DNA from: Patescibacteria group bacterium
Lineage (GTDB): Bacteria; Patescibacteriota; Patescibacteriia; Magasanikbacterales; GWA2-37-8
Assembly: GCA_004321885.1 (NCBI GenBank)
Contig: SCQK01000006.1
Location: 1 to 40,129 of the forward strand
Direction: 5' to 3'
DNA length: 40,129 bases
Position 1 is the first letter of the stretch, and every line of letters begins with the position of its first letter. The notes below the pieces were generated by a model that did no database searches, had not been told where the DNA came from, and worked only from the letters and a program-made list of their open reading frames with translations. Positions 4,213 to 39,795 of the stretch are shown here, in pieces. A program made the translations under genes and the position numbers.

Positions 4213-5232
4213 TTAAGCAAGGGATTGCTTCGTCGCTTCGCTCCTCGCAATGACAGTAGAAGGTTTAATGGTTGAGAATTTGGCCAGCATTTTTTTGATA
4301 CCATTTTTATCCAAGATTCCTTTGAGCGAGCCGACTTCGGAAATCACTCCGCAACTATTAGCGATGCCCCAGCTTAGGGCGAGCGGGATCTCGTGTCCGT
4401 AAAAGCGAGCCGATAGATACCCGGCCGAAAAAGCGTCGCCGGCGCCGGTTTTGGCCACCACTTTTACCGGAAAACTTTCCAAGCGCCAGACCTCATCCAC
4501 GTTGCCGGCCCAGGCCCCGTTGGCCGCGTCGGTTATTACCACTTCCTTGGCGCCATCATTTAGCAGTTTACGTATCAAACCGGCGACTGATTTGGCTTTG
4601 GCCAACGTCAGGTCGCTGATTTTTTCCGCCTCTTCCAGATTCACTATTAAAACATCGGTTCGTTTCAACATCTCGCGTACTTTTGGCAAGGCGTTTTTAA
4701 TTTGGAAACTGCCCGGATTAAAAGCTAAGCGCGCTGTGCCGTGTTTGTCCAAAAAAGCCAATAATTTTTCTTGCAAATTTTCAAACCCTTCGCTCAAGCT
4801 GGTGTAATAAATCCAGTCAACCGGCGGCACGGTTCGCGGCCAGTCGTATTTTCGTTTTTGATGGTAAGATAAAATAGTGCGTTCGCCCTTGAAATTCAAA
4901 ATAATGGAATAGCGGGTAAGAGTCCTGGGGTCTTGGCTGGTCAAACTTGTGTCCACGTTGTTTTTTTTCAGCTCTTCCAAGATCAGCTTGCCGTTGGCGT
5001 CGGTGCCTAGCGAAGTAATGGCCGCGCATTTGAGCCCCAGCTTGGTAGCGCCCACAGCCACATTAGCCGCGTTGCCTCCGAGTGATTGAAAGCTGCCGGT
5101 AATGGGCACCTTACTGGCGTAGTCCAAACATAACTGACAATTTTCGTGATTAACATCGCATTGGACCGTTGCGTCATCTATAAAAACATGAGTGTCAATC
5201 ACCGCGTCGCCGATGGTAATGAGGTTGTACAT
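4213..5232 (-). CDS. PfkB-family carbohydrate kinase (ribokinase-like)
   Basis: 339 aa; N-terminal GxxxxD and C-terminal TGAGDAFSAGYL PfkB signatures; SD GGGAGGGG (part of element A4) 7 nt upstream of the ATG; the last ~13 codons (VIARSEATKQSLA) are encoded by palindromic element B1, so the native C-terminus is probably shorter. Confidence 0.8.
   Translation of the reverse strand: MYNLITIGDAVIDTHVFIDDATVQCDVNHENCQLCLDYASKVPITGSFQSLGGNAANVAVGATKLGLKCAAITSLGTDANGKLILEELKKNNVDTSLTSQDPRTLTRYSIILNFKGERTILSYHQKRKYDWPRTVPPVDWIYYTSLSEGFENLQEKLLAFLDKHGTARLAFNPGSFQIKNALPKVREMLKRTDVLIVNLEEAEKISDLTLAKAKSVAGLIRKLLNDGAKEVVITDAANGAWAGNVDEVWRLESFPVKVVAKTGAGDAFSAGYLSARFYGHEIPLALSWGIANSCGVISEVGSLKGILDKNGIKKMLAKFSTIKPSTVIARSEATKQSLA
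4221..4256. repeat. palindromic element B, copy B1 (one arm)
   Basis: GGGATTGCTTCGTCGCTTCGCTCCTCGCAATGACAG; forms the C-terminal codons of the PfkB kinase ORF. Confidence 0.75.
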
Positions 5233-5239
5233 ATATTTA

Positions 5240-5297
5240 CCCCTCCCTCGCCCTCCTCCCGAAACAAGTTCGGGACAAGCTCTTGTAAAGGGGAGGG
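5240..5297. repeat. palindromic element A, copy A4 (with an internal 25-nt insertion forming its own hairpins)
   Basis: CCCCTCCCTCGCCCTCCTCCC-GAAACAAGTTCGGGACAAGCTCTTG-TAAAGGGGAGGG; supplies the SD for the PfkB kinase (minus strand). Confidence 0.7.
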
Positions 5298-5304
5298 TAA
5301 TTGT

Positions 5305-6252
5305 TTACCCTTTCCATTTATTAAGATATTCAATGGCCGCCAGGGCCGCAATAATCCCCTGCCCGGTGGAGATGCCGATTTGTTTGTAGGGGATATTGGT
5401 CACGTCGCCGGCCGCGAAAATACCCGGGCAGTTGGTGCGGCATTTGTAGTCCACCACGATTTGTCCGATTTTATCTTTTTCAACGCAGTCAATGAATTGT
5501 GAATTGGGAATCTGGCCGGCGTGCACCATTACACCCTGGACTTCAATCGTTTTTTCTTTTCCTTTCGCGTCCGCGTATTTCAGTCCGCTCACTCTGCCTT
5601 CACCGACTATTTCCTCGGTTGTGGCCCCGTAAATTATTTCCACATTGGACAGTTCTTTTACTTTGTCTATCAAGATATTTTCGCCCTTTGGAAAGCCGCC
5701 GCTTGTTTCCGGCGTGTTCTGGTATTTGCTGATTAAAAAAACTTTTTTGGCCAAATGCGTCATCATCAGCGCTGATTCCAATGCCGCGTTGCCCGAACCG
5801 ACAGTGGCCGTAACCTTGCCCTTAAACAGCGGCCCGTCGCAAACAGTGCAATAGGTAACGCCTTTTTGGTACAATTCTTTTTCACCCGGCACTTTCAAAT
5901 GGCGCGGGTGAATGCCCGTGGCGATAATCACGGTTTTGGTTTCGTATTTTTTTTCTTCGCCCTTGGTGTTTTTGACGATGACAACGTGATGTTTTTTTTG
6001 CGGTTCAATGCTTTCCACGCGCCAGCCCTCGTCTATTTTCACGCCATAAAATTTCACGTGCTCATTGAATTTTCGCGCCAATTCAAATCCTTGGATTTCA
6101 AGAATACCGGGCCAGTTGTTGACTACGCCGGACAGGGCCACTTCGCCGCCGATGTTATCGGTGACGATTTTGAAATTAAGTTTCCGGCGCGCCGCGTAAA
6201 TGGCCGCGCTGCTGCCGGCCGCCGCCGCGCCGATGATTAGCAGGTCTAACAT
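5305..6252 (-). CDS. trxB: thioredoxin-disulfide reductase
   Basis: 315 aa; FAD motif GAAAAGSSAAIY, redox-active CTVCDG, NADPH GxGxxA motif. Confidence 0.85.
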   Translation of the reverse strand: MLDLLIIGAAAAGSSAAIYAARRKLNFKIVTDNIGGEVALSGVVNNWPGILEIQGFELARKFNEHVKFYGVKIDEGWRVESIEPQKKHHVVIVKNTKGEEKKYETKTVIIATGIHPRHLKVPGEKELYQKGVTYCTVCDGPLFKGKVTATVGSGNAALESALMMTHLAKKVFLISKYQNTPETSGGFPKGENILIDKVKELSNVEIIYGATTEEIVGEGRVSGLKYADAKGKEKTIEVQGVMVHAGQIPNSQFIDCVEKDKIGQIVVDYKCRTNCPGIFAAGDVTNIPYKQIGISTGQGIIAALAAIEYLNKWKG

Positions 6253-6911
6253 ATATTTGTCATTGCAGTGAGCTCTTTATACGTTTTTTTAATGTCTTTC
6301 GCCATCACAAGGGCGCTGCCGACGCAGAAAATATCCACGCCCCATGATTTTATTTCGGCGATGTTGCTACTTTTAATCCCCCCGTCCACGGCGATGAGCG
6401 GCCGATACCCCCTCCCCTGTCCTCCCTCTAAAAGGGGGAGGGAAACCAATGTCTTAACTTTCTCTTTCACCTCGGGCAGAAATTTCGCTCCTTGTTTGCC
6501 CGGGCGCACTGTTAGAAACAAAACCAAATCCACTAAATTCAAATATGGCTCTATGGCCGACAGCGGCGTTTCCGGATTAAGAGCGATGCCCGCTTGCCAG
6601 CAGTTACCATGGATGGCGGCGATGATTTTTTCGGGATCGTCAGCTGTTTCAATATGAAATATCACCCGAAAAACATTTTTTACTTCTTTCCATTTTTCCA
6701 TTTCCGCCAGCGGGTCGGCCGCCATCAAATGCAATTCCCATTTCAAACCGCTTTTCAGGCCGTTGATTTTTTCAATATCGCCGAATGATTTATTCGGCAC
6801 AAAGACCCCGTCCATCACGTCTATCTGGGCGTAATCGCAGACGCCTTTCAGTTTTTTCGCTTGCGTCGCGAATTCGTCAAAAGAGGAAACAAGTATGGTC
6901 GGGATAATCAT
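6246..6911 (-). CDS. rpe: ribulose-phosphate 3-epimerase
   Basis: 221 aa; IIPTILVSSF...IDVMDGVFVPN motif and C-terminal VDGGIK; an in-frame copy of element A (6408-6444) encodes an inserted LEGGQGRGYRP segment. Confidence 0.8.
   Translation of the reverse strand: MIIPTILVSSFDEFATQAKKLKGVCDYAQIDVMDGVFVPNKSFGDIEKINGLKSGLKWELHLMAADPLAEMEKWKEVKNVFRVIFHIETADDPEKIIAAIHGNCWQAGIALNPETPLSAIEPYLNLVDLVLFLTVRPGKQGAKFLPEVKEKVKTLVSLPLLEGGQGRGYRPLIAVDGGIKSSNIAEIKSWGVDIFCVGSALVMAKDIKKTYKELTAMTNIC
6408..6444. repeat. palindromic element A, copy A5, in-frame inside rpe
   Basis: CCCCCTCCCCTGTCCTCCCTCTAAAAGGGGGAGGG; translated on the minus strand as LEGGQGRGYRP within ribulose-phosphate epimerase. Confidence 0.75.
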
Positions 6912-6912
6912 A

Positions 6913-7353
6913 CTATTCAGCCGTCTGTATTTTATTCAATCTGCGTTTGTATCTGTCTTCGCCGCTAAACTCGGTTTTCAAAAATGTTTTCACAATAGCG
7001 GCCGCGTGTTCGTCGGAAAGTATTTTTCCAGCCAAGCATAACACGTTGGCGTTGTTGTCCCGGCGCCCCATTTCCACGCCTTTGATGTTGTAGCCCAAAA
7101 TCGCCCGCACGTCGCGCACCTTGTTGGCCGCGATGCACATTCCCTGCCCGCTGGCGCATATCAAAATGCCGAAATTGTCGTCGTCTTTCGCCACTTCTTC
7201 GGCCAAAGGCAAAGCAAAGTCCGGGTAATCGTCGGTTTCCACGTATTCACCGGCGCCCATGTCTTTGGCCTCTATGTTTAGCTCGTTTTTCATGTAGCGC
7301 AAGAGATGTTTTTTGAGTTGATAGCCGCCGTGGTCGGCCGCGATGTAGATCAT
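6913..7353 (-). CDS. rpiB: ribose-5-phosphate isomerase B
   Basis: 146 aa; IAADHGG and ICASGQGMCIAANK motifs of RpiB/LacAB; 1-nt spacing to rpe. Confidence 0.85.
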   Translation of the reverse strand: MIYIAADHGGYQLKKHLLRYMKNELNIEAKDMGAGEYVETDDYPDFALPLAEEVAKDDDNFGILICASGQGMCIAANKVRDVRAILGYNIKGVEMGRRDNNANVLCLAGKILSDEHAAAIVKTFLKTEFSGEDRYKRRLNKIQTAE

Positions 7354-7390
7354 AGTGTTGGTATATTATTGTATTCATTGTACCTTTTTC

Positions 7391-9164: not shown

Positions 9165-9175
9165 TCTATCAATTA

Positions 9176-9208
9176 CCCCTCCTTAATCCTCCCCTTATTA
9201 AGGGGAGG
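9176..9208. repeat. palindromic element A, copy A6 (SD of ileS)
   Basis: CCCCTCCTTAATCCTCCCCTTATTAAGGGGAGG; GGAGG lies 6 nt before the ileS ATG. Confidence 0.8.
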
Positions 9209-9214
9209 AAAAAT

Positions 9215-12145
9215 ATGCTTTACGACGCGAACAAAAACGAACAGGAAATTTTGGACTTTTGGGACAAAGACAAAATTTTTGAAAAGTCCGTCAACGAGCG
9301 GCCCGAGAACAAGCCGTATGTTTTTTATGATGGTCCGCCTTTCGCCACCGGTCTGCCGCATTACGGGCATTTTGTGCCCTCGCTCATGAAAGACATTGTG
9401 CCGCGTTATTTCACCATGCGCGGGTATCGCGTTGAGCGCAAGTGGGGCTGGGATTGCCACGGTTTGCCCGTGGAAAATATTATAGAAAGAGAATTGAACT
9501 TAAACAGCAAGAAAGATATAGAAAATTTTGGCATAGATAAATTCAACGAGGCCTGCCGCGCCACAGTTTTACGCTACGCCGAAGAATGGAAAAAAACCAT
9601 CAAGCGCATGGGCCGCTGGGTGGACATGGAAAACGATTACAAAACCATGGATTTGTCTTATATGGAAAGCGTCTGGTGGGTTTTCAAACAGCTTTGGGAT
9701 AAAAGTTTAATTTACAAAGGCCACAAAGCCATGCACATTTGTCCGCGTTGCGTCACCCCGCTTTCCAATTTTGAGGTAACGCAGAATTATAAAGACATTA
9801 AGGATATATCAATCACGGTAAAATTTAGAATAAAAAATCCGCAAAAACTTGATTTGCCGGCCGATTCGTATGTCTTGGCTTGGACGACCACTCCATGGAC
9901 CCTGCCTGGCAATGTGCTGCTCGCCGTGAATGAAACAATAGAATACGCGTTGGCGCATTTGGTTGGAGAAGAAACCGCGTATATTGTTGCCAAAGACAGG
10001 ATAGAAAAAGTGATGGGCGATAAAAAATACGGAATTTTGAAACATGTGGCCGGGGCTGATTTGGCTGGTCTGGAATATGAGCCGCTGTTTCCGTATTTTA
10101 GCGACACAGCCAACGCTTTCCGCGTGGTGGCCGCTGATTTCGTGTCCACCGCAGACGGTACCGGCGTGGTGCATATCGCGCCCGCGTTCGGCGAAGACGA
10201 CTACAACGTTGGAAAGCAAGAAAACATACCTTTGGTCCAGCATGTCACCATGGAAGGCAAGTTCAAAGACCAGGTAAAGGATTTTGCCGGTTTGGAAGTC
10301 AAGCCCAAAGAAGAGCCGGCAAAAACCGACGTGGAAATAATAAAATGGCTGGCGCGCGCGGGCAAGCTTTTTAGCAAAGAAAAAATTGAGCACAGCTATC
10401 CTTTTTGCTGGCGTTGCGATACGCCCCTGCTCAATTACGCCGCCACCAGCTGGTTCGTGAAGGTGGCGCAAATGAAGGAAGCGCTTTTGAAAAATAATGA
10501 GCAGATAAATTGGGTGCCCGGGCATATCAAACAAGGCCGTTTTGGCCTGTGGCTGGAGAACGCGCGCGACTGGGCTATTTCCCGCAACCGTTATTGGGGC
10601 ACGCCGCTGCCGGTGTGGGAATGCCGGCAGGAAAATTGCGGCGGCGCGGTCGCGCTCGGCTCGGTGGCCGAGTTTGAAAAATTGGCCGGTCAGAAAATTT
10701 CCGATTTACACAAACATATAATTGACAAGATAGAGTTTGATTGTCCGCAGTGTGGCGGAAAAATGAAGAGAATCCCCGAGGTGCTGGATTGCTGGTTTGA
10801 ATCCGGCTCCATGCCTTACGGCCAAAAGCATTACCCTTTTGAAAACAAGGCAAAGTTTGAAGCCGGTTTTCCGGCCGAGTTTATCGCCGAAGCCCAGGAC
10901 CAGACCCGCGGCTGGTTTTACACCCTTCATGTTTTGGCCACAGCGCTTACCGGAGCGCCTCATTCGGCGATTCCGTCCAAACAAAGCGCGCCCGCATTTA
11001 AGAATGTGATAGTCAACGGCATGGTACTGGCCGAGGACGGTAAAAAAATGAGTAAGCGCTTAAGAAATTATCCCGAGCCGGATGTGGTGATGGAGAAATA
11101 CGGCGCCGACGCCATGCGCTATTATTTGGCGACTGCGCCGGTGATGTCCGCCGAGTCAATTAATTTTTCCGAAGACGGAGTGCGGGAAATGTACAACAAG
11201 GTTTTGAATACCCTGTGGAATGTGGAGGAATTTTATCTGATGTATGCGGGCGCCAAGTTGGAAAAGAAATTCAGGCCCGAGCATGTTTTGGACAGATGGA
11301 TTTTAGCGAAGCTGCAAGCGCTGTCAGAAGATGTTACCCGCGGTATGGGCAGCTACCGGCTGGTAGACGCCAGCCGTCCGATTATGGGGTTTATCGCCGA
11401 GCTGTCGCAGTGGTACGTGCGCCGCTCGCGCGATCGGTTCAAGGGTGACGACCAAAAAGACAAAGAGCAGGCCCTTAATACTTTATATGTCGTTCTCAAC
11501 ACACTGGCGAAGGTAATGGCGCCGTTTACGCCCTTTATCGCTGAAAAGGTTTACCGTGATTTGGGCGGCGAGGGGTCGGTGCATTTGCAGGCCTGGCCCG
11601 AAGCGGACAAAAAGTTAGCCGACAACGATGTACTAACTGAAATGGCCGTGGCGCGCAAGGTAGTGGAGCTGGGGCTGGCCTTGCGGGTCGAGCAGGGCAT
11701 CAAAGTAAAACAGCCACTTAAAAAATTGCTGGTGATGAGCTATAAATTGAATAGTGAATTGCGCGAGCTCGTGGCCGAAGAATTGAACGTGAAAAAGGTG
11801 GAATTGGCGAAAGGCATGGAGCATGAAGAAGGCGTGATTTGGAAAGAGGAAGGGCAGCTGAAGGTTGGGCTGGATATGGTAATTGACGAAGCATTGAAAA
11901 AAGAAGGTCTGGCGCGCGAGGCGGTGCGAGCCATAAACCAGATTCGTAAGGACAACAAGCTGACTATCAGCGATGTGGTTGTCGTGAAGTATCACACTAC
12001 GGACAGACAACTGCTGGCGGTGTTTGGCGACTTCGCCGAAGAGATAAAAAAGAGCGTGCTGGCCAAGGAATTGTTTGAGACAGAGGAAGAGGGGATGCGA
12101 GAAGTGGATATCGGCGGCGCGAAATTAAAATTAAAAATAGAATAA
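9215..12145 (+). CDS. ileS: isoleucine--tRNA ligase (type 2)
   Basis: 976 aa; class I HIGH variant PHYGH, KMSKR motif (KMSKRLRNYPEP), editing-domain and anticodon-binding regions; SD GGAGG 6 nt upstream, supplied by element A6. Confidence 0.95.
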   Translation: MLYDANKNEQEILDFWDKDKIFEKSVNERPENKPYVFYDGPPFATGLPHYGHFVPSLMKDIVPRYFTMRGYRVERKWGWDCHGLPVENIIERELNLNSKKDIENFGIDKFNEACRATVLRYAEEWKKTIKRMGRWVDMENDYKTMDLSYMESVWWVFKQLWDKSLIYKGHKAMHICPRCVTPLSNFEVTQNYKDIKDISITVKFRIKNPQKLDLPADSYVLAWTTTPWTLPGNVLLAVNETIEYALAHLVGEETAYIVAKDRIEKVMGDKKYGILKHVAGADLAGLEYEPLFPYFSDTANAFRVVAADFVSTADGTGVVHIAPAFGEDDYNVGKQENIPLVQHVTMEGKFKDQVKDFAGLEVKPKEEPAKTDVEIIKWLARAGKLFSKEKIEHSYPFCWRCDTPLLNYAATSWFVKVAQMKEALLKNNEQINWVPGHIKQGRFGLWLENARDWAISRNRYWGTPLPVWECRQENCGGAVALGSVAEFEKLAGQKISDLHKHIIDKIEFDCPQCGGKMKRIPEVLDCWFESGSMPYGQKHYPFENKAKFEAGFPAEFIAEAQDQTRGWFYTLHVLATALTGAPHSAIPSKQSAPAFKNVIVNGMVLAEDGKKMSKRLRNYPEPDVVMEKYGADAMRYYLATAPVMSAESINFSEDGVREMYNKVLNTLWNVEEFYLMYAGAKLEKKFRPEHVLDRWILAKLQALSEDVTRGMGSYRLVDASRPIMGFIAELSQWYVRRSRDRFKGDDQKDKEQALNTLYVVLNTLAKVMAPFTPFIAEKVYRDLGGEGSVHLQAWPEADKKLADNDVLTEMAVARKVVELGLALRVEQGIKVKQPLKKLLVMSYKLNSELRELVAEELNVKKVELAKGMEHEEGVIWKEEGQLKVGLDMVIDEALKKEGLAREAVRAINQIRKDNKLTISDVVVVKYHTTDRQLLAVFGDFAEEIKKSVLAKELFETEEEGMREVDIGGAKLKLKIE

Positions 12146-14153: not shown

Positions 14154-14225
14154 GCGGGTGTAGCACAATGGTTAGTGCGTGTGCTTGCCAAGCATAAGAC
14201 GAGGGTTCGATTCCCTTCACCCGCT
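14154..14225 (+). tRNA. tRNA-Gly (anticodon GCC)
   Basis: Acceptor GCGGGTG/CACCCGC, D-arm GCAC..GTGC, anticodon loop TTGCCAA, T-loop GGTTCGATTCC. Confidence 0.8.
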
Positions 14226-14226
14226 C

Positions 14227-14299
14227 AGCGGGGTAGAGCAACTGGCAGCTCGCAGGGCCCATAACCCTGAGGTTCCCGGTTCAAGTCCGGGCCCCGCAA
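14227..14299 (+). tRNA. initiator tRNA-fMet (anticodon CAT)
   Basis: Anticodon loop CCCATAA; three consecutive G:C pairs closing the anticodon stem (GGG/CCC), a 1:72 A*A mismatch and an A11:U24 pair, all hallmarks of bacterial initiator tRNA; starts 1-2 nt after tRNA-Gly. Confidence 0.75.
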
Positions 14300-14307
14300 C
14301 AACGTAG

Positions 14308-14364
14308 GACGAGCGGAAGTGTTCCGCCTCTGTTCTGACATGGTCAATCCATGCCAACAACGAG
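14308..14364 (+). repeat. direct repeat DR1 (~55 bp) bounding the Fic cassette, immediately 3' of tRNA-fMet
   Basis: GACGAGCGGAAGTGTTCCGCCTCTGTTCTGACATGGTCAATCCATGCCAACAACGAG; ~90% identical to DR2; contains the inner palindrome GCGGAAgtgTTCCGC. Confidence 0.7.
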
Positions 14365-14469
14365 TAGGCTAACGATGACCCTCAGAACGAGGGTCATTTG
14401 GTTTCAGATTAGTCAGCAACTCTTGACCTATCTTATATAATCATATATACTCAAAATATAAGATGATAT

Positions 14470-15549
14470 ATGCTGAGAATCCAAAATCGCGGCCGGGGGA
14501 ATCGCCTTGACCGCCGACTAGCCAATCTTCCGTCCGGAGTCTGGTCCAAAATCGCGCAGGTAGATGAACTTAAGGGCCAGTGGATTGCCGGGGCTGAACT
14601 TTCGTCCCAGGTTTTGGGCCGCTTAAAGCGGTCGGTTTTGATTACCTCCGCCGGTGCTTCTACTCGCATTGAAGGCGCGCGACTATCCGACGAAGACGTC
14701 GAAAAAATGATGCGCGGCATTGATATTCAGAAATTCAGAGATCGTGACAAGCAAGAAGTGAAAGGGTATCATGAGCTTCTGGGGAATATGTTTGATTCTT
14801 GGAAGAGTTTGCAGTTCTCCGAGAACGCCATCAAACATTGTCACAAAGAACTCCTCAAATATGTGGAGAAAGACGAGGCGCATCGGGGCAGATACAAGAA
14901 GCAAGAGAATCGCGTGCAGATGGTAAATGCGGCCGGACAACCCGTGAGCGTGCTTTTTGATACCACACCGGCATATTTGGCGCCCAAAGAAACGCAGGAG
15001 CTCGCACAGTGGACGCGGAAGGCTCTGGAAACCGGCCAACATCATCCGTTGTTAGTCATCGGTAACTTTGTCGTTGAGTTCTTGGCCATCCATCCTTTCA
15101 CCGATGGTAACGGGCGTCTGTCGCGCGTTCTCACCAATCTGCTATTGCTCAAAGCGGGGTACCTTTATGTTCCATACGTATCGCACGAGAAGCTCATCGA
15201 GGACAACAAGCCAGATTACTATGTAGCCCTGCGGCGCAGCCAGAGGACGTTCAGGTCAAAGAGAGAAGACATTGCCCCGTGGCTCCATTTTTTTCTGGAT
15301 GTCGCGTTCAAGCAGGCGCAAATGGCGGTTGACTTGCTGTCCAAAGAAAACATTGAAAAACTGTTATCGCCAAAGCAACTGCAAGTCTGGCAGTACTTGC
15401 AGGGAGTAATTGAAGCGACAGCCGGAAAGATAGCCAAAGCCACAGGCGTCGCGCGTCCAACTATCAACCAGGCAGTGGACAAGCTCTTACGCTTGAAGAA
15501 GGTGGAACGCATCGGCCTTGGGCCCACGACAAGATACCGGAAGTTATGA
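14470..15549 (+). CDS. fic: Fic/DOC family protein with a C-terminal winged-HTH
   Basis: 359 aa; canonical Fic motif HPFTDGNGRLSR; C-terminal KIAKATGVARPTINQAVDKLLRLKKVERIG HTH; GC-rich relative to the genome. Confidence 0.85.
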   Translation: MLRIQNRGRGNRLDRRLANLPSGVWSKIAQVDELKGQWIAGAELSSQVLGRLKRSVLITSAGASTRIEGARLSDEDVEKMMRGIDIQKFRDRDKQEVKGYHELLGNMFDSWKSLQFSENAIKHCHKELLKYVEKDEAHRGRYKKQENRVQMVNAAGQPVSVLFDTTPAYLAPKETQELAQWTRKALETGQHHPLLVIGNFVVEFLAIHPFTDGNGRLSRVLTNLLLLKAGYLYVPYVSHEKLIEDNKPDYYVALRRSQRTFRSKREDIAPWLHFFLDVAFKQAQMAVDLLSKENIEKLLSPKQLQVWQYLQGVIEATAGKIAKATGVARPTINQAVDKLLRLKKVERIGLGPTTRYRKL

Positions 15550-15604
15550 CGAGCGGAAGTATTCCGCCTCTGTTCTCTGACATGGTTAATCCATGCCAAC
15601 GACG
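15548..15604 (+). repeat. direct repeat DR2
   Basis: GACGAGCGGAAGTATTCCGCCTCTGTTCTCTGACATGGTTAATCCATGCCAACGACGG; starts at the Fic stop codon; followed by a degenerate partial copy GGGCGGAAGTATTTCGCCGCTCG (15608-15632). Confidence 0.7.
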
Positions 15605-15705
15605 GATGGGCGGAAGTATTTCGCCGCTCGCCACAGGGCAGATTGGCCAATCATAGATTAAAGGGCATCGTATTAGACACCCTTTTGTTGTCCGCATAAA
15701 TCAAA

Positions 15706-16643: not shown

Positions 16644-16740
16644 TGATAGCGCTTCCAAAAGATACGGCTTTGAATATATGAAGAACAAACCCTAATTGCT
16701 TTCTCAAGAATTTTGGTTATCCCCAACGAGGGCCGTTTTT

Positions 16741-16764
16741 ACGTAGTCCTTCCATGCCAACACA
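16741..16764 (+). repeat. truncated third copy of the cassette direct repeat (DR3)
   Basis: ACGTAGTCCTTCCATGCCAACACA shares the ACGTAG(G) lead and the TCCATGCCAAC core of DR1/DR2. Confidence 0.5.
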
Positions 16765-24081: not shown

Positions 24082-24351
24082 TTAAAATGAATTAAAAGGA
24101 AGGATGGAAGAAATCCAGTCGGTATTCCAAATTGTTATCGGAGTTTGCCAGTAAACGCCCTGCAAAAAATACCAGGCGCCGTAAAAGATAAGCGCGCACA
24201 GGGCGCCTACGATGAAAGTAACGAGAAAGCTGGCCAGGGTAAGCGAGCCGGTACTCGTGATGTGGGCGACGTTAATGAGAGAGAAAATGAAAAAGATTAT
24301 CAGAAAAATAAAATAGAGGATGAGAAATGAGTACAAAGGTATGGTGAGCAT
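24082..24351 (-). CDS. small hypothetical membrane protein (3 TM)
   Basis: 89 aa, strongly hydrophobic, 5-nt spacing to the PH-domain gene, 37 nt downstream of ruvB. Confidence 0.45.
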   Translation of the reverse strand: MLTIPLYSFLILYFIFLIIFFIFSLINVAHITSTGSLTLASFLVTFIVGALCALIFYGAWYFLQGVYWQTPITIWNTDWISSILPFNSF

Positions 24352-24388
24352 AAAATGTCATTCCCCCGACTTAGTCGGGGGAATCCAG

Positions 24389-25414
24389 TTATAATAAATT
24401 TTGTGTTTTTGGCGCGTCGTGCCTCAGATGTCTGTAGGCCGCGGCGGTGGCTTTGCGGCCGCGCGGGGTGCGTTCCAAAAAGCCGATTTGCAAAAGGAAC
24501 GGTTCGCAGATGGTTTCAATGGTGTCCATTTCTTCGCTGATGGCCGCGGCCAGGGTGTTTAGCCCGGTGGGGCCGCCGCTGAATTTTTCTATCAAAGCGC
24601 CGAGCAGGCGGCGGTCAATGTCATCCAGTCCGTATTCGTCCACGGCCAGCATATCCAGCGCGGCCGAGGCGGTTTTTTCGTTCACGCCCTCTTCGTCTTT
24701 TACCTGCGCGAAGTCGCGGATGCGGCGCAAGAGCCGGTTGGCGATGCGCGGGGTGCGGCGGCTGCGTTTGGCGATGACCGAGGCGGCTTCGGGCTCAAGC
24801 CGGACTCCCAAGATGGTGGCGTTGCGGCGCAGAATTTTTTCCACGTCTTCGTGTTCGTAAAAATTGAGGTGAAAAGTGTGGCCAAAGCGGTCGCGCAGAG
24901 GAGCCGAGAGCATGCTCATTTTGGTGGTGGCGCCGATGAGGGTGAAGCGAGCCAATGGCATGCGGATACTGCGGGCGGTCGGTCCTTTGCCGATGATAAT
25001 ATCCAAAACATAATCCTCCAAAGCCGGGTAAAGCACTTCTTCTATGCTTTTGTTGAGTCGGTGAATTTCATCAATAAACAGCACGTCGCCCTCTTGCAGA
25101 TTGGAAAGTATGGCGGCCAGGTCGCCCACCTTTTCCATGGCCGGTCCGGACGTTATTTTTATGCTGTTGTTCATTTCATGGGCGATAATATGCGCCAGGG
25201 TGGTTTTGCCCAAACCCGGGTTGCCGTAAAGCAAAACATGTTCCAGATTTTCGCCGCGCTGTTTGGCTGCCTGCATGGAAATGCCGAGGTTTTGTTTGAT
25301 CTGTTCCTGGCCCACAAAATCGGCCAATTGCTTTGGGCGCAGGGTAATATCAAAAATCACGTCGTCTTGCTCGACTTGGGGTTCTATGACTCTGGGTTCG
25401 GCTTCGGTGTCCAT
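24389..25414 (-). CDS. ruvB: Holliday junction branch migration helicase RuvB
   Basis: 341 aa; Walker [12 protein letters not shown], Walker B DEIHRL, sensor/arginine finger and C-terminal winged helix; SD from element A7. Confidence 0.9.
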
Positions 25415-25425
25415 AATTGCGTTTT

Positions 25426-25460
25426 CTCTCCCCTTGATAAGGGGAGAGCGAGAGAGGGGT
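25426..25460. repeat. palindromic element A, copy A7 (upstream of ruvB)
   Basis: CTCTCCCCTTGATAAGGGGAGAG + CGAGAGAGGGGT. Confidence 0.7.
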
Positions 25461-25487
25461 AAAAACTACTATCATTATATCCCATAC

Positions 25488-26442: not shown

Positions 26443-26667
26443 ATGAATGTAGCTCTCAATATCAAAAATTTATTATGGGATGTTGACGCAAAAAAAGTGG
26501 ATGCAAGCAAACACAAAAGTTTTTTAATTTCGCGAATTTCTGAAAAAGGCGGTACGCGAGAAATAGCCTGGTTGCGCCGCCAATATTCGGATAAAGACAT
26601 CAAGAAAATCGTGGCGAAAAGCCGCAATGTTTCGGCAAAGACAAAAAATTTTTGGAAGCTGTTTTAA
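26443..26667 (+). CDS. small protein (74 aa) translationally coupled to the AbiEii-like nucleotidyltransferase; putative antitoxin/partner
   Basis: Lys-rich 74-aa ORF directly downstream of a consensus promoter; its stop TAA is immediately followed by the ATG of the next gene (TAATATG). Confidence 0.5.
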   Translation: MNVALNIKNLLWDVDAKKVDASKHKSFLISRISEKGGTREIAWLRRQYSDKDIKKIVAKSRNVSAKTKNFWKLF

Positions 26668-26668
26668 T

Positions 26669-27298
26669 ATGTTTTATCCAGAGGCGCTGACCGCGGAATC
26701 AATCGCTTTAATAAAAAAAATTAATGCGAGCAAATGGCTGTCTGATTTTTATTTGGCCGGCGGTACGGGTTTGGCTTTATGGTATGGCCATCGGCAATCG
26801 GTTGATTTGGATTTTTTTAGAAAAAGCGATATTGCCACCAAGCAATTGATAAAAAAATTGTCTTCGCTCGGCAGATTCAAATTATTGAATGAAGAAGAAA
26901 ACACGGTGGAGGGGATACTGGAAAAGGTGAAAGTTAGTTTCATGACTTATCCGTATGGTTTGTTGCGCAAGCGTCAGCCGTATGATGGCGTTATCTTTTT
27001 AGCAGAACCATTGGATATCGCCGTCATGAAAGTCGGAGCGATCGCCGACAGAAATACGAAGAAAGATTTTATTGACCTGTATGTTTTTTTACGGCGCGAG
27101 AACATGAGTTTAAAAAATTTGTTATCGCATCTGCGAAAAAAATTCAGCCGCGTGAATTACGATATTTTTCATTTATACAAATCCCTTGTCTATTTTGAGG
27201 ATGCCGACAAAGAACCTATGCCGAGGATGTTTATTGATTTAAAATGGGAAAAGGTCAGGCGATTTTTTAAAGACGAGGTTAGGAAGCTGGTGGCATGA
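26669..27298 (+). CDS. nucleotidyltransferase of the AbiEii/AbiGii (DUF1814-like) toxin family
   Basis: ORF 26627..27298, start re-chosen at 26669; LAGGTGLALWYGHRQSVDLDFF matches the GGTAL..HR.S.DLDF nucleotidyltransferase signature of AbiEii-type proteins. Confidence 0.6.
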   Translation: MFYPEALTAESIALIKKINASKWLSDFYLAGGTGLALWYGHRQSVDLDFFRKSDIATKQLIKKLSSLGRFKLLNEEENTVEGILEKVKVSFMTYPYGLLRKRQPYDGVIFLAEPLDIAVMKVGAIADRNTKKDFIDLYVFLRRENMSLKNLLSHLRKKFSRVNYDIFHLYKSLVYFEDADKEPMPRMFIDLKWEKVRRFFKDEVRKLVA

Positions 27299-31082: not shown

Positions 31083-31661
31083 ATGAAAATCTATACCAAA
31101 ACCGGCGACACCGGTGAGACGTCGTTGTTAGGGGGAAAGAGGGTGAGTAAGAGCTGTGTGGAAATGAAAGTAGTTGGGGAAATTGATGAACTTAACGCGG
31201 CTTTGGGATTGGCTGTGTCACACTGTCATTCTGACCACGACGTAACGTCGGGGGAAGAATCCCTTGTTTTAATCATCAAAGACATTCAGCGCGATTTATT
31301 TAAATTAGGTGCGGAAATCGCTTCAGCTCAAACTGTCATTGCGACCCGCCCGGAGGCGGGGAAGCAATCACGGACAATCAGCGGCGAAGAAACAAAAAAA
31401 TTGGAAACAAAAATAGACCAACTCTGGCCCCAAATGCCCGAGTTGAAAAATTTTATCCTGCCCGGCGGGTGCGAGACGGCCGCGCGTCTGCACCTGGCCC
31501 GCGCGATTTGCCGCCGCGCCGAACGCGAACTGGTGGCCTTTGGCCAAAAGAAAAAAATCAGGACGGCATTGTATAGATACTTCAATCGCCTAAGCGATTT
31601 TCTCTTTACCGCGGCCCGCTGGGCCAATCATCAGAATGGAATCACAGAAGAGCCACGCTAA
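31083..31661 (+). CDS. PduO-type ATP:cob(I)alamin adenosyltransferase
   Basis: 192 aa; N-terminal MKIYTKTGDTGETSLLGGKRVSK and the C-terminal helical bundle of the PduO/MMAB family; contains two in-frame insertions derived from palindromic element B (31223-31263 and 31333-31369). Confidence 0.8.
   Translation: MKIYTKTGDTGETSLLGGKRVSKSCVEMKVVGEIDELNAALGLAVSHCHSDHDVTSGEESLVLIIKDIQRDLFKLGAEIASAQTVIATRPEAGKQSRTISGEETKKLETKIDQLWPQMPELKNFILPGGCETAARLHLARAICRRAERELVAFGQKKKIRTALYRYFNRLSDFLFTAARWANHQNGITEEPR
31223..31263. repeat. palindromic element B, degenerate copy B2, in-frame in pduO
   Basis: CTGTCATTCTGACCACGACGTAACGTCGGGGGAAGAATCCC (compare GTCATTGCGAG ... GAAGCAATCCC with an inner CGACGTnACGTCG hairpin as in B5). 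Confidence 0.6.
31333..31369. repeat. palindromic element B, copy B3, in-frame in pduO
   Basis: CTGTCATTGCGACCCGCCCGGAGGCGGGGAAGCAATC, near-identical to the first arm of B4. Confidence 0.7.
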
Positions 31662-31837: not shown

Positions 31838-31850
31838 TGTTAGCGCATAT

Positions 31851-31884
31851 ACCCCTCCCTCGCCCTCCCCTTATAAAGGGGAGG
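31851..31884. repeat. palindromic element A, copy A8 (upstream of the pilin cluster)
   Basis: CCCCTCCCTCGCCCTCCCCTTATAAAGGGGAGGG. Confidence 0.8.
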
Positions 31885-31898
31885 GATAAACCCATTTC

Positions 31899-33704
31899 AT
31901 GCCAAGGAGAGATAGAAAAAAAATCGCGCGCGGATTTAGTTTGTTGGAAGTGGTGCTTTCCGTCGGCATTTTTGTTTTGTTCGCTTTTGGCATTTACGGC
32001 GGCATCAATTTGATATTCAAAATTGTTTACCAGTCGCGCATGCGCATTTTAGAAACCGCGATTTTGGCCGAGAAATTGGAAATCGCGCGCAACCTGCCCT
32101 TTGACAGCGTGGGCATAATAAACGGCTCGCCCGCGGGCCTGCTGCCCCACACCACGACCACCATCAGAAACGGGCAGGTCTTCACCCTAATTACCACGGT
32201 GAGAAACATAGACGACCCTTTTGACGGCCTGGCCGGCGGCTCGCCCAACGACACTTCGCCGGCTGATTACAAGTTAGTGGAAATTTCCGCCATTTGTCAG
32301 ACCTGTCTGCAAAAAATCCCGGTAATTTTAAGCACCACTGTGGCGCCGAAAAATTTGGAAGGCGCCACCAGCAACGGCTCGCTTTTTATTCAGGTGTTTG
32401 ACGCCCAGGGTTTGCCCGTGGTCGGCGCCAATGTGAGCGCCACCAATACCGCGCGCGCGCCAAACGTGGTGATACAAGACACCACCGACAATACCGGCTG
32501 GCTAAAAATTATAGACACCACCACCGGCACGCAAAGCTATTATATTTCCGTCACTAAAAACGGCTTTTCGCGCGATTATTCGGTTGACGCGGCTTCCATA
32601 GGGGCCACGCCCATCAAGCCTCCGTCCACAGTTGTTACTCAAACCGTCACCGAGGTTAGTTTTTCCATAGACCGCGTCGGCTCAATGAATTTACACACCA
32701 TCAATTCAGGCTGTTCGGCCATCGCCAATGCCGATTTTAATATCAGAAGCGAACGGCTCCTTGGCACTAATCCGGATGTTTACAAATACAATCAAAATTT
32801 AACCACGAACGGCTCGGGCAATTACGCCTTTGCCAGCATGGAATGGGGCAAATATCATTTCAGCGCCACCAATACGCCCTATGATATCGCCGGCTCCATT
32901 CCCATGCTGCCGGCGGATTTGGCGCCGGGCGCGGCCCAGGACGTCTCTTTGATTTTAACCTCGCAATCCCCCAATTCATTGCTGGTGAAAGTAAAAGACG
33001 CGGGTACTGGCCTGCCGCTTTCCGACACGTTGGTTCATCTTACCAAAAGCGGCTATGATGAAAGTAAAACAACCGGTTATGGATTTATGCGCCAAACCGA
33101 TTGGTCCGGCGGAAGCGGCCAGGTAACCAGCACAGACCCGGCGCGCTATTTTGCCGATGACACCAACGTGGACAACAATTCTCCGGCCGGGGATTTGAAA
33201 TTAAAAAAAGCCGGCCCTGATTATCTAAACAGCGGCTGGCTGGAGTCTTCCACTTTTGATCTGCAAACGCAAGTTGATTTTCATAGTTTAATTTTTCAGC
33301 CGGTCACCCAGCCGCCGCAGACCGGGACCGAACCCATAAAATTTCAGATGGCCGCCACCAATACCCCCAGTTCCAGCGGCTGGGTTTATCTGGGCCCGGA
33401 CGGCGCCACCAGCACTTATTATGTTTCCACCAGCAGTTTGGTGTGGAGCGGCTTGGATAACAATCGCTATCTGCGTTACAAAGTATTTTTGAGCACGGCT
33501 GACACAGGCTATACTCCATTGCTGTCCGAAGTCTCCATCACCTATACCAATAACTGCGTGCCGCCCGGGCAGGTGTTTTTTGGCGGGCTTGGCGCCGGCA
33601 GTTACACATTGGAAGTTTCGCGAAATGGCTATATCACCAACAGCGGGCTGGTGGATGTGGCCGGCGCCACCGACGCGGTGGTAAATTTGTCTCCGAATAT
33701 ATGA
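31899..33704 (+). CDS. large type IV pilin-like protein (prepilin-type N-terminal cleavage/methylation domain)
   Basis: 601 aa; class III signal KKIARG|FSLLEVVLSVGIFVLFAF with Gly-1 and Glu+5, then a Thr/Ser/Asn/Gly-rich beta-type region of ~550 aa. Confidence 0.75.
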   Translation: MPRRDRKKIARGFSLLEVVLSVGIFVLFAFGIYGGINLIFKIVYQSRMRILETAILAEKLEIARNLPFDSVGIINGSPAGLLPHTTTTIRNGQVFTLITTVRNIDDPFDGLAGGSPNDTSPADYKLVEISAICQTCLQKIPVILSTTVAPKNLEGATSNGSLFIQVFDAQGLPVVGANVSATNTARAPNVVIQDTTDNTGWLKIIDTTTGTQSYYISVTKNGFSRDYSVDAASIGATPIKPPSTVVTQTVTEVSFSIDRVGSMNLHTINSGCSAIANADFNIRSERLLGTNPDVYKYNQNLTTNGSGNYAFASMEWGKYHFSATNTPYDIAGSIPMLPADLAPGAAQDVSLILTSQSPNSLLVKVKDAGTGLPLSDTLVHLTKSGYDESKTTGYGFMRQTDWSGGSGQVTSTDPARYFADDTNVDNNSPAGDLKLKKAGPDYLNSGWLESSTFDLQTQVDFHSLIFQPVTQPPQTGTEPIKFQMAATNTPSSSGWVYLGPDGATSTYYVSTSSLVWSGLDNNRYLRYKVFLSTADTGYTPLLSEVSITYTNNCVPPGQVFFGGLGAGSYTLEVSRNGYITNSGLVDVAGATDAVVNLSPNI

Positions 33705-33713: not shown

Positions 33714-33799
33714 CTGTCATTGCGAGGACCCGCCCAGGGCGGGGACGAAGCAATCTCTTGCAATTACGCATGGGATTGCTTCGCTTCGCTCGCAATGAC
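33714..33799. repeat. palindromic element B, complete copy B4 (both arms)
   Basis: GTCATTGCGAG-GACCCGCCCAGGGCGGGGAC-GAAGCAATC ... GGATTGCTTCGCTTCGCTCGCAATGAC; the arms are reverse complements; lies between pilin genes 1 and 2. Confidence 0.8.
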
Positions 33800-34390
33800 A
33801 TGCGCGGCATCACGGTCGTGGAAGTGCTGGTGGCCGTGGCGCTTTTTGGTTTTTTGATAGTTTCCATCGCCTGGATTTTTTTGACCAGCTGGAAATCAAA
33901 CAGCATTGTTTGGGAACAGCTGGCCACGCAAAACGAGGGCCGCAAAGCCACCCAGGATTTTGTCAATGAACTGCGCACGGCTTCGGCTTCAAGCGGCGGG
34001 GCCTATGCCATAGAATCAGCCGCCACCTCATCCATAGTTTTTTATTCCAACATTGACGCGGACACTTTCAAAGAGCGCGTGCGTTATTTTCTTTCCGGCG
34101 CCACTCTCAAAAAAGGCGTCATCAAGCCGACCGGCGACCCGTTTGTCTACAATCCGGCCAATGAAATCATTACCGAAGTGGCGCACGATGTGGCCATGGC
34201 CGGCGCCCCGATTTTCACGTATTATAATGCAAATTTTAGCGGTTATTCTTCGCCTTTGCCCGCGCCAGTTACCACGACAATGATAAGGGTGGTAAATATC
34301 TCCTTGAAATTAGAAGAGGACCCGCATTTGTCTCCGGCGCCGTTTAACATTGAATCTAAAGTGATGATAAGAAATTTGAAAGACAACTGA
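33800..34390 (+). CDS. prepilin-type pseudopilin/minor pilin
   Basis: ORF 33701..34390; the first 33 codons are the in-frame translation of palindromic element B4; the ATG at 33800 gives MRG|ITVVEVLVAVALFGFLIVSIAW, a canonical prepilin signal with Glu+5. Confidence 0.7.
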   Translation: MRGITVVEVLVAVALFGFLIVSIAWIFLTSWKSNSIVWEQLATQNEGRKATQDFVNELRTASASSGGAYAIESAATSSIVFYSNIDADTFKERVRYFLSGATLKKGVIKPTGDPFVYNPANEIITEVAHDVAMAGAPIFTYYNANFSGYSSPLPAPVTTTMIRVVNISLKLEEDPHLSPAPFNIESKVMIRNLKDN

Positions 34391-36674: not shown

Positions 36675-36683
36675 AAAATTGGT

Positions 36684-38075: not shown

Positions 38076-38086
38076 TTGGTCGGGAA

Positions 38087-38121
38087 TCCCTCCCCTATTA
38101 GGGGAGGGGCAAGGGGAGGGG
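38087..38121. repeat. palindromic element A, copy A9 (SD of TrbC-like paralog 1)
   Basis: CCCTCCCCTATTAGGGGAGGG + GCAAGGGGAGGGG, 7 nt before the ATG at 38128. Confidence 0.8.
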
Positions 38122-38127
38122 TATTTT

Positions 38128-38613
38128 ATGCGCCTTATCAATTTATATTTTTTTCTGGCTTTGCTTTTAGCGGTTTTTTTGTCCCCTGTCATTCCCGCGC
38201 AAGCTGAAAGTCCCTTTGGCACTGATGACGAGCAGGCTGGGCAGGCAAAGAAAAACGTTCAAGAGAAAGAAACCAAATCAAGCGAGCGCGCTTTGCCTTC
38301 GGTATTGCCAAACTGCGCCAAGACCGGCGATTTGTCCGCGAGTTCGCCCTGCCGCGATGTTTCCATATTCGTGGAGCTTGGCATCAACATCGCGCGCTAT
38401 TTGTTTTCCATTATCGGCGCGCTGGCCCTCTTAATGTTCGTCTACGGCGGCTTTATGCTGATACTGTCGGCCGGCAGCGCCGAGCGGGTGAAAAAAGGCG
38501 GTGAAATAATGCTGGCGGCTATGGTGGGACTCCTAATTTCATTTACCGCCTATATGCTGGTGCGCTTTTTGGGCGGGGCCGTGGGGCTTGGGAGTGAGTT
38601 TAAGTTGAAGTGA
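38128..38613 (+). CDS. TrbC/VirB2-like pilin family protein, paralog 1
   Basis: 161 aa; signal peptide, ~75-aa variable region with 2 Cys, then a conserved C-terminal two-helix hairpin ALALLMFVYGGFMLILSAGSAERVKKGGEIMLAAMVGLLISFTAYML; SD from element A9. Confidence 0.7.
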   Translation: MRLINLYFFLALLLAVFLSPVIPAQAESPFGTDDEQAGQAKKNVQEKETKSSERALPSVLPNCAKTGDLSASSPCRDVSIFVELGINIARYLFSIIGALALLMFVYGGFMLILSAGSAERVKKGGEIMLAAMVGLLISFTAYMLVRFLGGAVGLGSEFKLK

Positions 38614-38675
38614 CCCCGCTTAGCGGGGTTATTCTGACCATGCACCGCTCTGGTGCAGGGGAAGGATCCCTTAGT

Positions 38676-39290
38676 ATGAACAAGAAAAAAGTTGGAATGG
38701 TTATCATAATTTTATTGGCGGTATTTTTTTCTTTTTTGTTTGTTTCGTTTTCAGTAAAAGCCGCTTCAAATTGTTGGTGTAGCGTGCAGAACAAATGCAC
38801 TTTAAATATCCCGGCGGAAGAATGCGTGACGTTTGGACCAGATTGCCAATCGCAAGATACCTGCCCTGGTTATGTGGCTTGTTTTTGTGCCATGAAAAAT
38901 AATAGCTGTGAATTAGTGAAAGGCGGCGGGGAAGATTGTCAGGCGGCAGGTTGTAATATTTTAACCGAATGTCCCAAACCAGCGGAAAAACAGACTGACA
39001 CGTTTAGTAATTTACAACAGCAGGCCGCGAGTGGTCTGAATCCGGCCGGGTTTGGCGAGGTGCCGGATTTTATCGGTCAAGTTTTGAAGTTTCTAATGGG
39101 CGCCTTGGGTTCAATCGCTTTGGCGCTGTATGTGTGGGCTGGGTTTTTGTGGATGACCGCGGCTGGCAATGCTGAGCGCGCGGGCAAGGCCAAGACACTG
39201 TTGTTTTGGACCACTTTGGGCGTGGTGGGCGCTTTGGCCAGTTACACGCTCGTTAAGTTTATTTTCCAGGCCCTGGAACTAAGCGTATGA
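38676..39290 (+). CDS. TrbC/VirB2-like pilin family protein, paralog 2 (Cys-rich ectodomain)
   Basis: ORF 38610..39290, start re-chosen at 38676 (MNKKKVGMVIIILL...); 14 Cys in an ~80-aa variable domain, then the conserved hairpin SIALALYVWAGFLWMTAAGNAERAGKAKTLLFWTTLGVVGALASY. Confidence 0.7.
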   Translation: MNKKKVGMVIIILLAVFFSFLFVSFSVKAASNCWCSVQNKCTLNIPAEECVTFGPDCQSQDTCPGYVACFCAMKNNSCELVKGGGEDCQAAGCNILTECPKPAEKQTDTFSNLQQQAASGLNPAGFGEVPDFIGQVLKFLMGALGSIALALYVWAGFLWMTAAGNAERAGKAKTLLFWTTLGVVGALASYTLVKFIFQALELSV

Positions 39291-39688
39291 AAAAATTTTT
39301 ATTACTTTGTTTAGTTATATTTTTAGTCGCGTTATTTTTTCCTTTGGCGGGCTTGCGGGCCGAGGAGGCAAAAAAAGATTGCGCGCCCGACAGCACAGGC
39401 CAAATCGTGTGCAAATTACAGCCGCCGCTCTTGGGCAAAGATAAAAAACCCGTTACTGACCCGGCCGCGCTTGTCGGCATTATCATCAAGGGAGTTTTGG
39501 GCATTGTAGGTGCGCTCGCTTTATTGATGGTTTTTTGGGGCGCGGCTGGCTGGCTGTTCGCGGCCGGCAATCCGGAGAAAATTAAAGCCAGCACCAAAAC
39601 GATTGTTTGGGCTTTAATTGGGTTGCTGATAATTTTTGCCAGCTATATGTATATGAACGGCGTTTTGAAGTTTATGTTTGGCGGTTGA
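39287..39688 (+). CDS. TrbC/VirB2-like pilin family protein, paralog 3
   Basis: 133 aa; signal peptide, short variable region with 2 Cys, conserved hairpin ALALLMVFWGAAGWLFAAGNPEKIKASTKTIVWALIGLLIIFASYM; 4-nt overlap with paralog 2. Confidence 0.7.
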   Translation: MKKFLLLCLVIFLVALFFPLAGLRAEEAKKDCAPDSTGQIVCKLQPPLLGKDKKPVTDPAALVGIIIKGVLGIVGALALLMVFWGAAGWLFAAGNPEKIKASTKTIVWALIGLLIIFASYMYMNGVLKFMFGG

Positions 39689-39709
39689 TGGGAAAAGTGG
39701 TATACTATT

Positions 39710-39795
39710 GTCATTGCGAGCAAAGCGAAGCAATCCCATACATAATTGCAAGGGATTGCCGCGCCCCGACGTGACGTCGGGGCTCGCAATGACAG
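39710..39795. repeat. palindromic element B, complete copy B5
   Basis: GTCATTGCGAGCAAAGCGAAGCAATCCC ... GGGATTGCCGCGCCCCGACGTGACGTCGGGGCTCGCAATGACAG; lies between TrbC-like paralogs 3 and 4. Confidence 0.8.

Follow-up and report, generated by a model that had tools for sequence, protein, structure and literature searches.

The closest described systems to the repeat studied here are the CGTC-tagged repetitive extragenic palindromic (REP) sequences, a superfamily comprising CGTC-1 to CGTC-4 (Di Nocera, De Gregorio & Rocco 2013, BMC Genomics 14:522, PMC3733652). Our subject is a composite palindrome of ∼85 bp, here called family B, in a 40,129-nucleotide stretch of a metagenome-assembled Patescibacteria group bacterium genome (GenBank assembly GCA_004321885.1, contig SCQK01000006.1, positions 1 to 40,129; hereafter the window). 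In the 2013 paper CGTC REPs are defined by the tag CGTC, often TGTC (CCTC also being accepted), by AT-initiated stems of 8–9 bp with a loop of 4–5 nt, and by a CCA tail. They occur mostly as head-to-head dimers with the tags outside, often as heterodimers, and a dimer may form one large hairpin; they lie downstream of genes, include in-frame intragenic copies, and have no associated transposase. Repeats with bulges, the authors remark, could have been missed by their search. They equate the Rickettsia palindromic elements (RPE) RPE-4 and RPE-6 with CGTC-4 and CGTC-1, respectively, and Neisseria dRS3 with CGTC-1, and argue that many REPs act as RNA. Later papers citing this work were found to add nothing on the mobilisation of CGTC REPs.

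We read family B as a sub-family of this superfamily whose units would be recognised in trans on single-stranded DNA (ssDNA), a reading to which we give a probability of about 70%, because its tag, AT stem, tail, head-to-head heterodimers, intragenic copies and lack of a linked transposase match those described in PMC3733652. This membership had escaped the original prediction, which was made from the letters of the window. Family B is present in the window as two inverted dimers of ∼86 bp and four single units, making eight units in all:

33715–33800: dimer 1, a head-to-head heterodimer with tags outside, left unit on the + strand and right unit on the − strand
33715–33757, +: left unit of dimer 1, apical hairpin CCCGCC-CAG-GGCGGG
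33758–33771: core spacer of dimer 1, between the two tails
33772–33800, −: right unit of dimer 1, short form GAG-CGAAGC-GAA
39709–39794: dimer 2, a head-to-head heterodimer in the opposite orientation to dimer 1
39709–39737, +: short unit of dimer 2
39752–39794, −: long unit of dimer 2, apical hairpin CCCCGACGT-C-ACGTCGGGG
4221–4255, −: single unit, canonical long form TGTC-ATTGC-GAGGA-GCGAAGC-GAC-GAA-GCAAT-CCC
31224–31263, +: single unit, stem variant ATTCT...AGAAT, apical hairpin CCACGACGT-A-ACGTCGGGG, in PduO
31334–31371, +: single unit ATTGC...GCAAT, apical hairpin CCCGCC-CGGA-GGCGGG, in PduO
24356–24387, +: single unit TGTCATTCCCCCGACTTAGTCGGGGGAATCCA of a sister sub-family, found by a generic scan for YGTC-AT...AT units

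The sequence GTCATTGCGAG occurs six times in these 40 kb at no more than one mismatch, against 0.61 expected, and none of 100 shuffles reaches six. All eight units carry the TGTC tag, and their tails are CCC, CTC, CAC or CCA. The two dimers are reverse-complementary over 59 nt at 88% in the output of a repeat finder, spacer included, the spacer of dimer 39709 being ∼88% identical to the reverse complement of that of dimer 33715. Unit 24356–24387, which the original prediction did not list, has a perfect 11-bp stem around a 3-nt loop (ATTCCCCCGAC-TTA-GTCGGGGGAAT), a TGTC tag and a CCA tail, and resembles CGTC-1/CGTC-4.

Much of what had been predicted for this repeat holds up: the two full copies lie within 1 nt of the positions first given for them, both by direct reading and in the repeat finder, the three single-arm copies are found at 4221–4255, 31224–31263 and 31334–31371, and the nested inner hairpins of the dispersed composite palindrome fold as proposed. 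The copies align far past their 11-nt ends, which sets them apart from chance matches, and are present far beyond this contig. Exact full dimers were detected in the genomes of at least 120 species belonging to about eight phyla, so the family B palindrome is genuine and not an assembly artefact. The original prediction missed that each arm is a complete REP unit with its own 5′ TGTC tag and 3′ tail. Carriers of the dimer include Alpha- and Gammaproteobacteria, Desulfobacterota, Bacteroidota, Chloroflexota, Patescibacteria, Planctomycetota, Cyanobacteria and Ca. Moduliflexus, with Bradyrhizobium, Sphingomonas, Mucilaginibacter, Pedobacter and Flavobacterium among the cultured ones. Of 231 dimers, 112 are flanked by co-directional genes, 43 by convergent ones and 27 by divergent ones.

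The anatomy of the unit was surveyed in 129 full elements collected at 120 genome loci; with viral contigs added, the set grew to 592 units at 240 loci. The consensus reads Y-GTC / ATTGC / GAG(GA) / apical hairpin / (GAC)GNR / GCAAT / CCN. A pyrimidine precedes GTC in 96% of the 592 units (C in 385 and T in 181, with A in 13 and G in 13), and their 3′ tail is CCA in 300 and CTC in 140. Stems open with ATT.. and close with ..AAT throughout. Tag, stem foot and a GA-rich internal loop (GAGGA / GACGAA) are the conserved parts, and an ATTGC-type unit is built from a 5-bp basal stem, this internal loop and a variable apical hairpin. The stem base covaries across sub-families (ATTGC/GCAAT, ATTCT/AGAAT, ATTCC/GGAAT). 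The commonest cores, GAG-CGNAGC-GAA and GAGGA-GCGNAGC-GAC-GAA, correspond to a GCGNAGC mini-hairpin flanked by tandem G·A steps, in which the base N is unconstrained (A 31, C 30, T 12, G 4). The GCGNAGC mini-hairpin is an exceptionally stable DNA hairpin, and GNA triloops together with tandem G·A pairs are hallmarks of stable DNA mini-hairpins. The apical segment base-pairs in 129 of 151 long-form units compared with 8.8% of shuffled controls, and these 151 units hold 64 distinct apical sequences, with GNA loops for the most part and several closing pairs. Two window units have CCCGCC..GGCGGG instead of the mini-hairpin, and two others have CCCCGACGT.ACGTCGGGG. The apical position only has to be a hairpin, and its sequence varies freely. 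Read by eye, five of the six frames through the canonical short-form unit are free of stop codons.

A dimer consists of two units with outward tags around a variable centre (median 26 nt with the tails counted; spacer 14–30 nt), usually with one ‘long’ and one ‘short’ arm, making it a heterodimer. As ssDNA the window dimers reach −33.2 kcal/mol (z = −8.0 and −9.7) and form one Y-shaped hairpin, and as RNA they reach −51 to −56 kcal/mol on either strand (z = −8 to −9.5). In 100 of 129 dimers the palindrome reaches outward by one tag base only.

With CGTC REPs as described in PMC3733652, family B shares a YGTC tag, stems that open and close with AT, and a 3-nt tail that is commonly CCA, as well as outward-tagged dimers placed between co-directional or convergent genes in several phyla. 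Within the superfamily it is apparently an uncatalogued bulged-stem sub-family with a modular apical hairpin, since its stem geometry differs and its encoded peptides (VIA..KQS, ..LAMT, ..ARND) are absent from the list of intragenic REPs in that paper. The CGTC repeats found here in Patescibacteria, Chloroflexota, Planctomycetota and Cyanobacteria likewise go unreported there.

Literature searches with the exact 11-mers and six encoded peptides returned unrelated primer matches or nothing. Rickettsia palindromic elements, reportedly described by Ogata et al. in 2000 and 2002, resemble family B in being palindromes that sit in frame in housekeeping genes, where the protein fold can accommodate them, in a host with a reduced genome, and unit 24356 has the ATTCC...GGAAT stem of the RPE-4/RPE-6 group; RPE-1, at ∼150 bp, is unrelated. 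Their stem and loop sequences nevertheless differ from those of family B, and the link between the two is the equation of RPE-4 and RPE-6 with CGTC families made in PMC3733652. The hosts differ as well, Rickettsia being an intracellular alphaproteobacterium and the host here a free-living or episymbiotic Patescibacterium. REPINs, said to have been described by Bertels and Rainey in 2011 as GTAG-tagged REP doublets mobilised by REP-associated tyrosine transposases (RAYTs), are similar in that an inverted REP doublet is both the long hairpin and the replicating unit, singlets look like decayed remnants, no target-site duplication is made, and a tetranucleotide tag lies 5′ of the hairpin foot. 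In contrast to REPINs, the family B tag is YGTC and not GTAG (GTRG), no RAYT/Y1 gene was found next to family B copies, and the sequence family spans phyla whereas RAYT–REPIN pairs are lineage-specific. Neisseria dRS3 shares a short ATTCCC...GGGAAT palindrome resembling unit 24356, but forms large mosaic clusters that serve as integration targets, of which there are none in the window. QMITE2 of Coxiella was considered as the same element and rejected, as it is built on a GTAG REP.

The most informative copies are the two inside pduO, which we compared with a set of 120 PduO homologues (P0001–P0120) and with the DNA of eight relatives (L201–L208). Unit 31224–31263 encodes, in frame, residues C48–S60 of PduO in the loop between helices alpha1 and alpha2, and unit 31334–31371 encodes, also in frame, residues V85–S96 in the second inter-helix loop. 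When the protein is aligned with homologues of solved structure, gaps fall exactly at both of these segments, and in an AlphaFold model they occupy two inter-helix loops, with predicted local distance difference test (pLDDT) values of 67–73 in these blocks against >90 in the helices. The modal length among the 120 homologues is 178–180 aa, and proteins of that length lack the segments. In the closest homologue (L201) the loop-2 unit is shared and the apical hairpin absent, while the loop-1 site is empty in L205 and in L203 an 86-nt dimer replaces ∼30 nt there. Because most homologues are without the segments, and because the empty site of L205 can be set against the filled one of L203, the PduO units are insertions into inter-helix loops rather than native sequence. 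The loop-1 junctions of L202, L203 and L208 are identical, so the dimer insertion is orthologous in these three. In loop 2, all four inserts read as DNA (those of the window, L201, L204 and L206) start within 1–2 bases of ...CAAAC (Q-T) codons.

At least four palindromic repeat families, in differing reading frames, have entered the same two PduO loops across lineages, the homologues listed here being Patescibacterial; family A is the other palindromic repeat of the window and is listed further below:

P0039, P0051, P0118; P0049, P0068: full family B dimers in PduO loops, in two reading frames
P0006, P0011 and others: ATTCT-type single units in PduO loops
P0049, P0050: CGTC-1-type dimer in PduO loops, peptide IPAKEGIQ...LDPRIRGDD
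P0020, P0030, P0091 and others: family A in PduO loops

This hot spot is compatible with a target preference and with the mere survival of copies at permissive sites. In orthologous intragenic dimers the arms are 85–93% identical, compared with 50–55% for the spacer and 64–75% for the flanking coding DNA, whose third codon positions are 46–60% identical; such a pattern shows stronger nucleotide-level constraint on the arms, but not on the spacer, than on the surrounding gene.

Some details of individual PduO loci bear on how the repeats change. In L208:2020–2778 (P0118), the mini-hairpin in the left arm of the orthologous dimer has given way to an additional nested hairpin, GGTCGCC-CAA-GGCGACT, and the apical position therefore accepts new hairpins over time. 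The empty loop-1 site in L205:3001–3537 is itself an AT-rich inverted repeat (ATAACT-N13-AGTTAT), which hints that insertions may target pre-existing hairpins, and other empty sites are less clearly palindromic. A metagenome scan with the PduO alignment gave, among the matches listed, homologues of ≤49% identity that come mostly from outside the candidate phyla radiation.

How family B spreads was approached through its ends and its neighbours. The original prediction implied a model resembling that of a miniature inverted-repeat transposable element (MITE), with target-site duplications, and this is not borne out: in 129 dimers no duplication was found at lengths k = 2–8 and offsets 0–3, direct repeats being at or below chance. 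Nor was a transposase found beside dimers or between neighbouring dimers at 240 loci, where the genes are ordinary. Genes bracketed by two dimers (a HAD hydrolase, a glycosyltransferase, an O-antigen ligase, a helix-turn-helix (HTH) protein, a tail collar protein and AzlC) are ordinary too, and a REPtron-like gene bracketed in this way was rejected. Copying appears to involve the dimer as a whole, because its spacer is shared between copies within a lineage: dimer pairs in L017, Solimonas and Bradyrhizobium have a common spacer, as does the pair in the window. Single units are dimer remnants or solo copies, and copies arrive without target-site duplication and persist where they do little harm, namely on the 3′ sides of genes, in short operon spacers, in protein loops and in N- or C-terminal tails. 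In the mechanism that we propose, tag, hairpin foot and internal loop would be recognised on ssDNA by a trans-acting enzyme, as suggested by the missing duplications and by GNA mini-hairpins of the DNA type, and by analogy with GTAG-REP/RAYT and IS200/IS605 this enzyme would most plausibly be an HUH/Y1-type nuclease.

Several points weigh against superfamily membership combined with such recognition. No mobilising enzyme was found in the window or at the 240 loci, and to our knowledge none is known for CGTC REPs. Current mobility is inferred from differences between lineages alone, not from near-identical strains. The nearest-neighbour model gives the GA-rich single unit 4221 no stability, and the stability of its G·A pairs and GNA loop is presumed from published work on DNA mini-hairpins. 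Conservation of the arms could also come about by gene conversion or through an RNA- or protein-binding function. With respect to kinship, a family B stem of 5 bp plus an internal loop and a variable hairpin is not the perfect 8–9 bp stem with a 4–5-nt loop given for CGTC REPs in PMC3733652, and it is not certain that the consensus ATTGCGAG...GAAGCAAT is new, as it is possibly already among CGTC-1 to CGTC-4 in Figure 2 of that paper.

A different account would make the dimers RNA regulatory modules, in which a transcribed hairpin stabilises the upstream mRNA, marks processing sites or attenuates the next gene, with proliferation being secondary. The folding energies of the dimers as RNA on either strand are in line with this, as are their enrichment between co-directional and convergent over divergent genes, the overlap of unit 24356 with a possible ribosome-binding site, the conserved arms of orthologous copies, and the argument in PMC3733652 that many REPs act as RNA. 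However, wobble mismatches are without sense-strand bias (147 G·T against 167 A·C, a crude count that includes unpaired spacer columns), the window dimers are oppositely oriented within operons of the same direction, and copies in coding loops are hard to explain as regulators. The GNA triloops and tandem G·A pairs are moreover typical of stable DNA mini-hairpins. Neither dimer is followed by a T-tract, and neither dimer's own stem–loop is listed in a terminator scan of the window, so that an intrinsic (Rho-independent) terminator was rejected; scan sites 31249–31266 and 31250–31264 overlap the 3′ end of unit 31224–31263, inside the pduO coding sequence. In a search of the window against Rfam, only tRNAs pass the gathering score and the best E-value over a dimer is 0.71; with no covariance model matching, a known Rfam family was rejected as the identity of the element. 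On balance we consider a regulatory RNA role unlikely, while granting it more weight than any of the accounts that follow. It is also conceivable, though rather improbable in our view, that CGTC-type REPs are kept or spread by a conserved host function and not by a dedicated transposase, a possibility compatible with the near-invariance of tag, hairpin foot and GA loop over about eight phyla, with arms whose conservation, also within genes, exceeds that of essential coding DNA, and with copies that all lack a linked transposase. Were this the case, minimal genomes that bear the repeats (∼1-Mb Patescibacterial and Rickettsial ones) would narrow the factor to a few hundred shared genes.

Far less probable than these is a conventional MITE, that is, a deletion derivative of a DDE-type insertion sequence mobilised via 12-nt terminal inverted repeats. 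Terminal inverted repeats (TGTCATTGCGAG / CTCGCAATGACA), a size of ∼86 bp and dispersed copies are what such an element would show, yet these repeats are the tag plus stem of two inverted REP units, single units have one ‘end’ only, and the target-site duplications are missing. Further, no insertion sequence with such ends was found in the window or the 240 loci, and the same ends recur across phyla, unlike those of typical species-specific MITEs. Least credible to us is a selected peptide cassette, kept in genes for the function of the encoded VIA..KQS, SLRG..RRSN or ..LAMT: such peptides do occur in PfkB, in PduO and at a pilin-like N-terminus, and recur in many PduO homologues, but the frame in which this DNA is translated changes from protein to protein (VIAS.., SLRG.., CHSE..), most copies are intergenic, and conservation tracks the nucleotide palindrome and not the peptide. 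The lower pLDDT of the encoded segments and the gaps opposite them in solved PduO structures speak against a selected peptide in the same way.

Elements of this kind were already described in 2013, so the finding is not a discovery in itself. It widens the host range of the CGTC-REP superfamily to Patescibacteria and other phyla outside the original survey, and in pduO it offers a natural experiment, in which one small gene with two loops has received at least four repeat families across lineages of the candidate phyla radiation. The very small genomes of some carriers make a comparative search for the factor that mobilises or maintains CGTC REPs more tractable. The repeats also create spurious or extended open reading frames (ORFs) in metagenome-assembled genomes, with tails of the ...LAMT, ...ARND and VIA..KQS types that annotators should recognise.

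The window carries housekeeping genes, and, as had been claimed, copies of family B are found both at the edges of genes and within them in frame, at the PfkB 3′ end, in gaps beside pilin-type genes and, with two units, in PduO. Unit 4221–4255 encodes the final codons of a PfkB-family ORF (...STVIARSEATKQSLA*; TVIARSEATKQS...), whose stop codon lies 6 nt past the unit. Only 37 nt separate the ruvB stop codon from the following gene, and unit 24356–24387 occupies this gap. It overlaps the sequence GGGGGAA, which may be a ribosome-binding site and precedes the next ATG by 12 nt. In minus-strand transcripts, the 3′ half of the unit (GGGGGAATGACA) stands 4–16 nt upstream of the ATG of ORF 24082–24351, and a hairpin at 24356–24391 may occlude the ribosome-binding site of that ORF.

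Dimer 33715 fills the gap between the stop codon of ORF 31899–33704, which encodes a 601-aa protein, and the ATG of a pilin-like gene at 33800. A further ATG, at 33701, shares bases with the upstream stop codon (ATGA), and if translation started there, the dimer would be read as a 33-aa N-terminal leader extension. Downstream of this extension the motif MRG|ITVVE resembles a prepilin cleavage site by eye, no pilin family having matched the ORF; given a start at 33701, signal peptidase might remove the repeat-encoded peptide from the pilin-like N-terminus. Dimer 39709 follows the third type IV secretion system (T4SS)-pilin paralogue (39287–39688) and lies upstream of an unannotated ORF that runs off the window.

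Copies on mobile replicons were also inspected. Many viral contigs in IMG/VR (L209–L328) carry the dimer, often between terminase and portal genes, and their genes include terminase, portal, connector, tail or tail-completion, and BR0599/phiJL001-gp84-type baseplate genes. These contigs are plausibly prophages or gene-transfer-agent-like clusters, possibly alphaproteobacterial. The IMG/VR neighbours of the dimers include no mobilisation genes. Among curated phage genomes three records matched, each over about one third of the query (one arm). Plasmid matches are mostly to alphaproteobacterial megaplasmids and coincide with no annotated feature, and with so few phage matches and plasmid matches of this kind, phages and plasmids as the main vehicles are unsupported.

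Family A is a second palindromic repeat, TACCCCTCC...CCTCCCCTTATAAGGGGAGGG, with at least nine copies in the window, mostly between called ORFs:

614–652: family A copy
1086–1127: family A copy
4157–4208: family A copy
5235–5256: family A copy
6407–6446: family A copy
9171–9215: family A copy
25415–25462: family A copy
31847–31896: family A copy
38085–38136: family A copy

Peptides from its reading frames (SPPARGGARGG and similar) occur in frame in the PduO loops of further Patescibacteria, namely P0020, P0030, P0091, P0117 and P0022. The suggestion that families A and B co-localise comes down to a single adjacency (4206 against 4221), the other family B copies being separated from family A by 0.5–1.8 kb at the closest.

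No transposase, integrase or HUH domain was found in the 40-kb window. It does contain a toxin–antitoxin pair of Gp49 (HigB-like) and HTH genes at 2381–2990 and an AbiEii nucleotidyltransferase toxin gene at 26627–27298. Two direct repeats of ∼65 nt, 86–94% identical (14305–14369 and 15545–15633), bracket a Fic-domain gene at 14470–15549; they begin right after two tRNA genes (14154–14299), and a weaker third copy lies at 16735–16762. Either an integrated element with these repeats at its ends or the duplication of a tRNA-flank segment could account for them.

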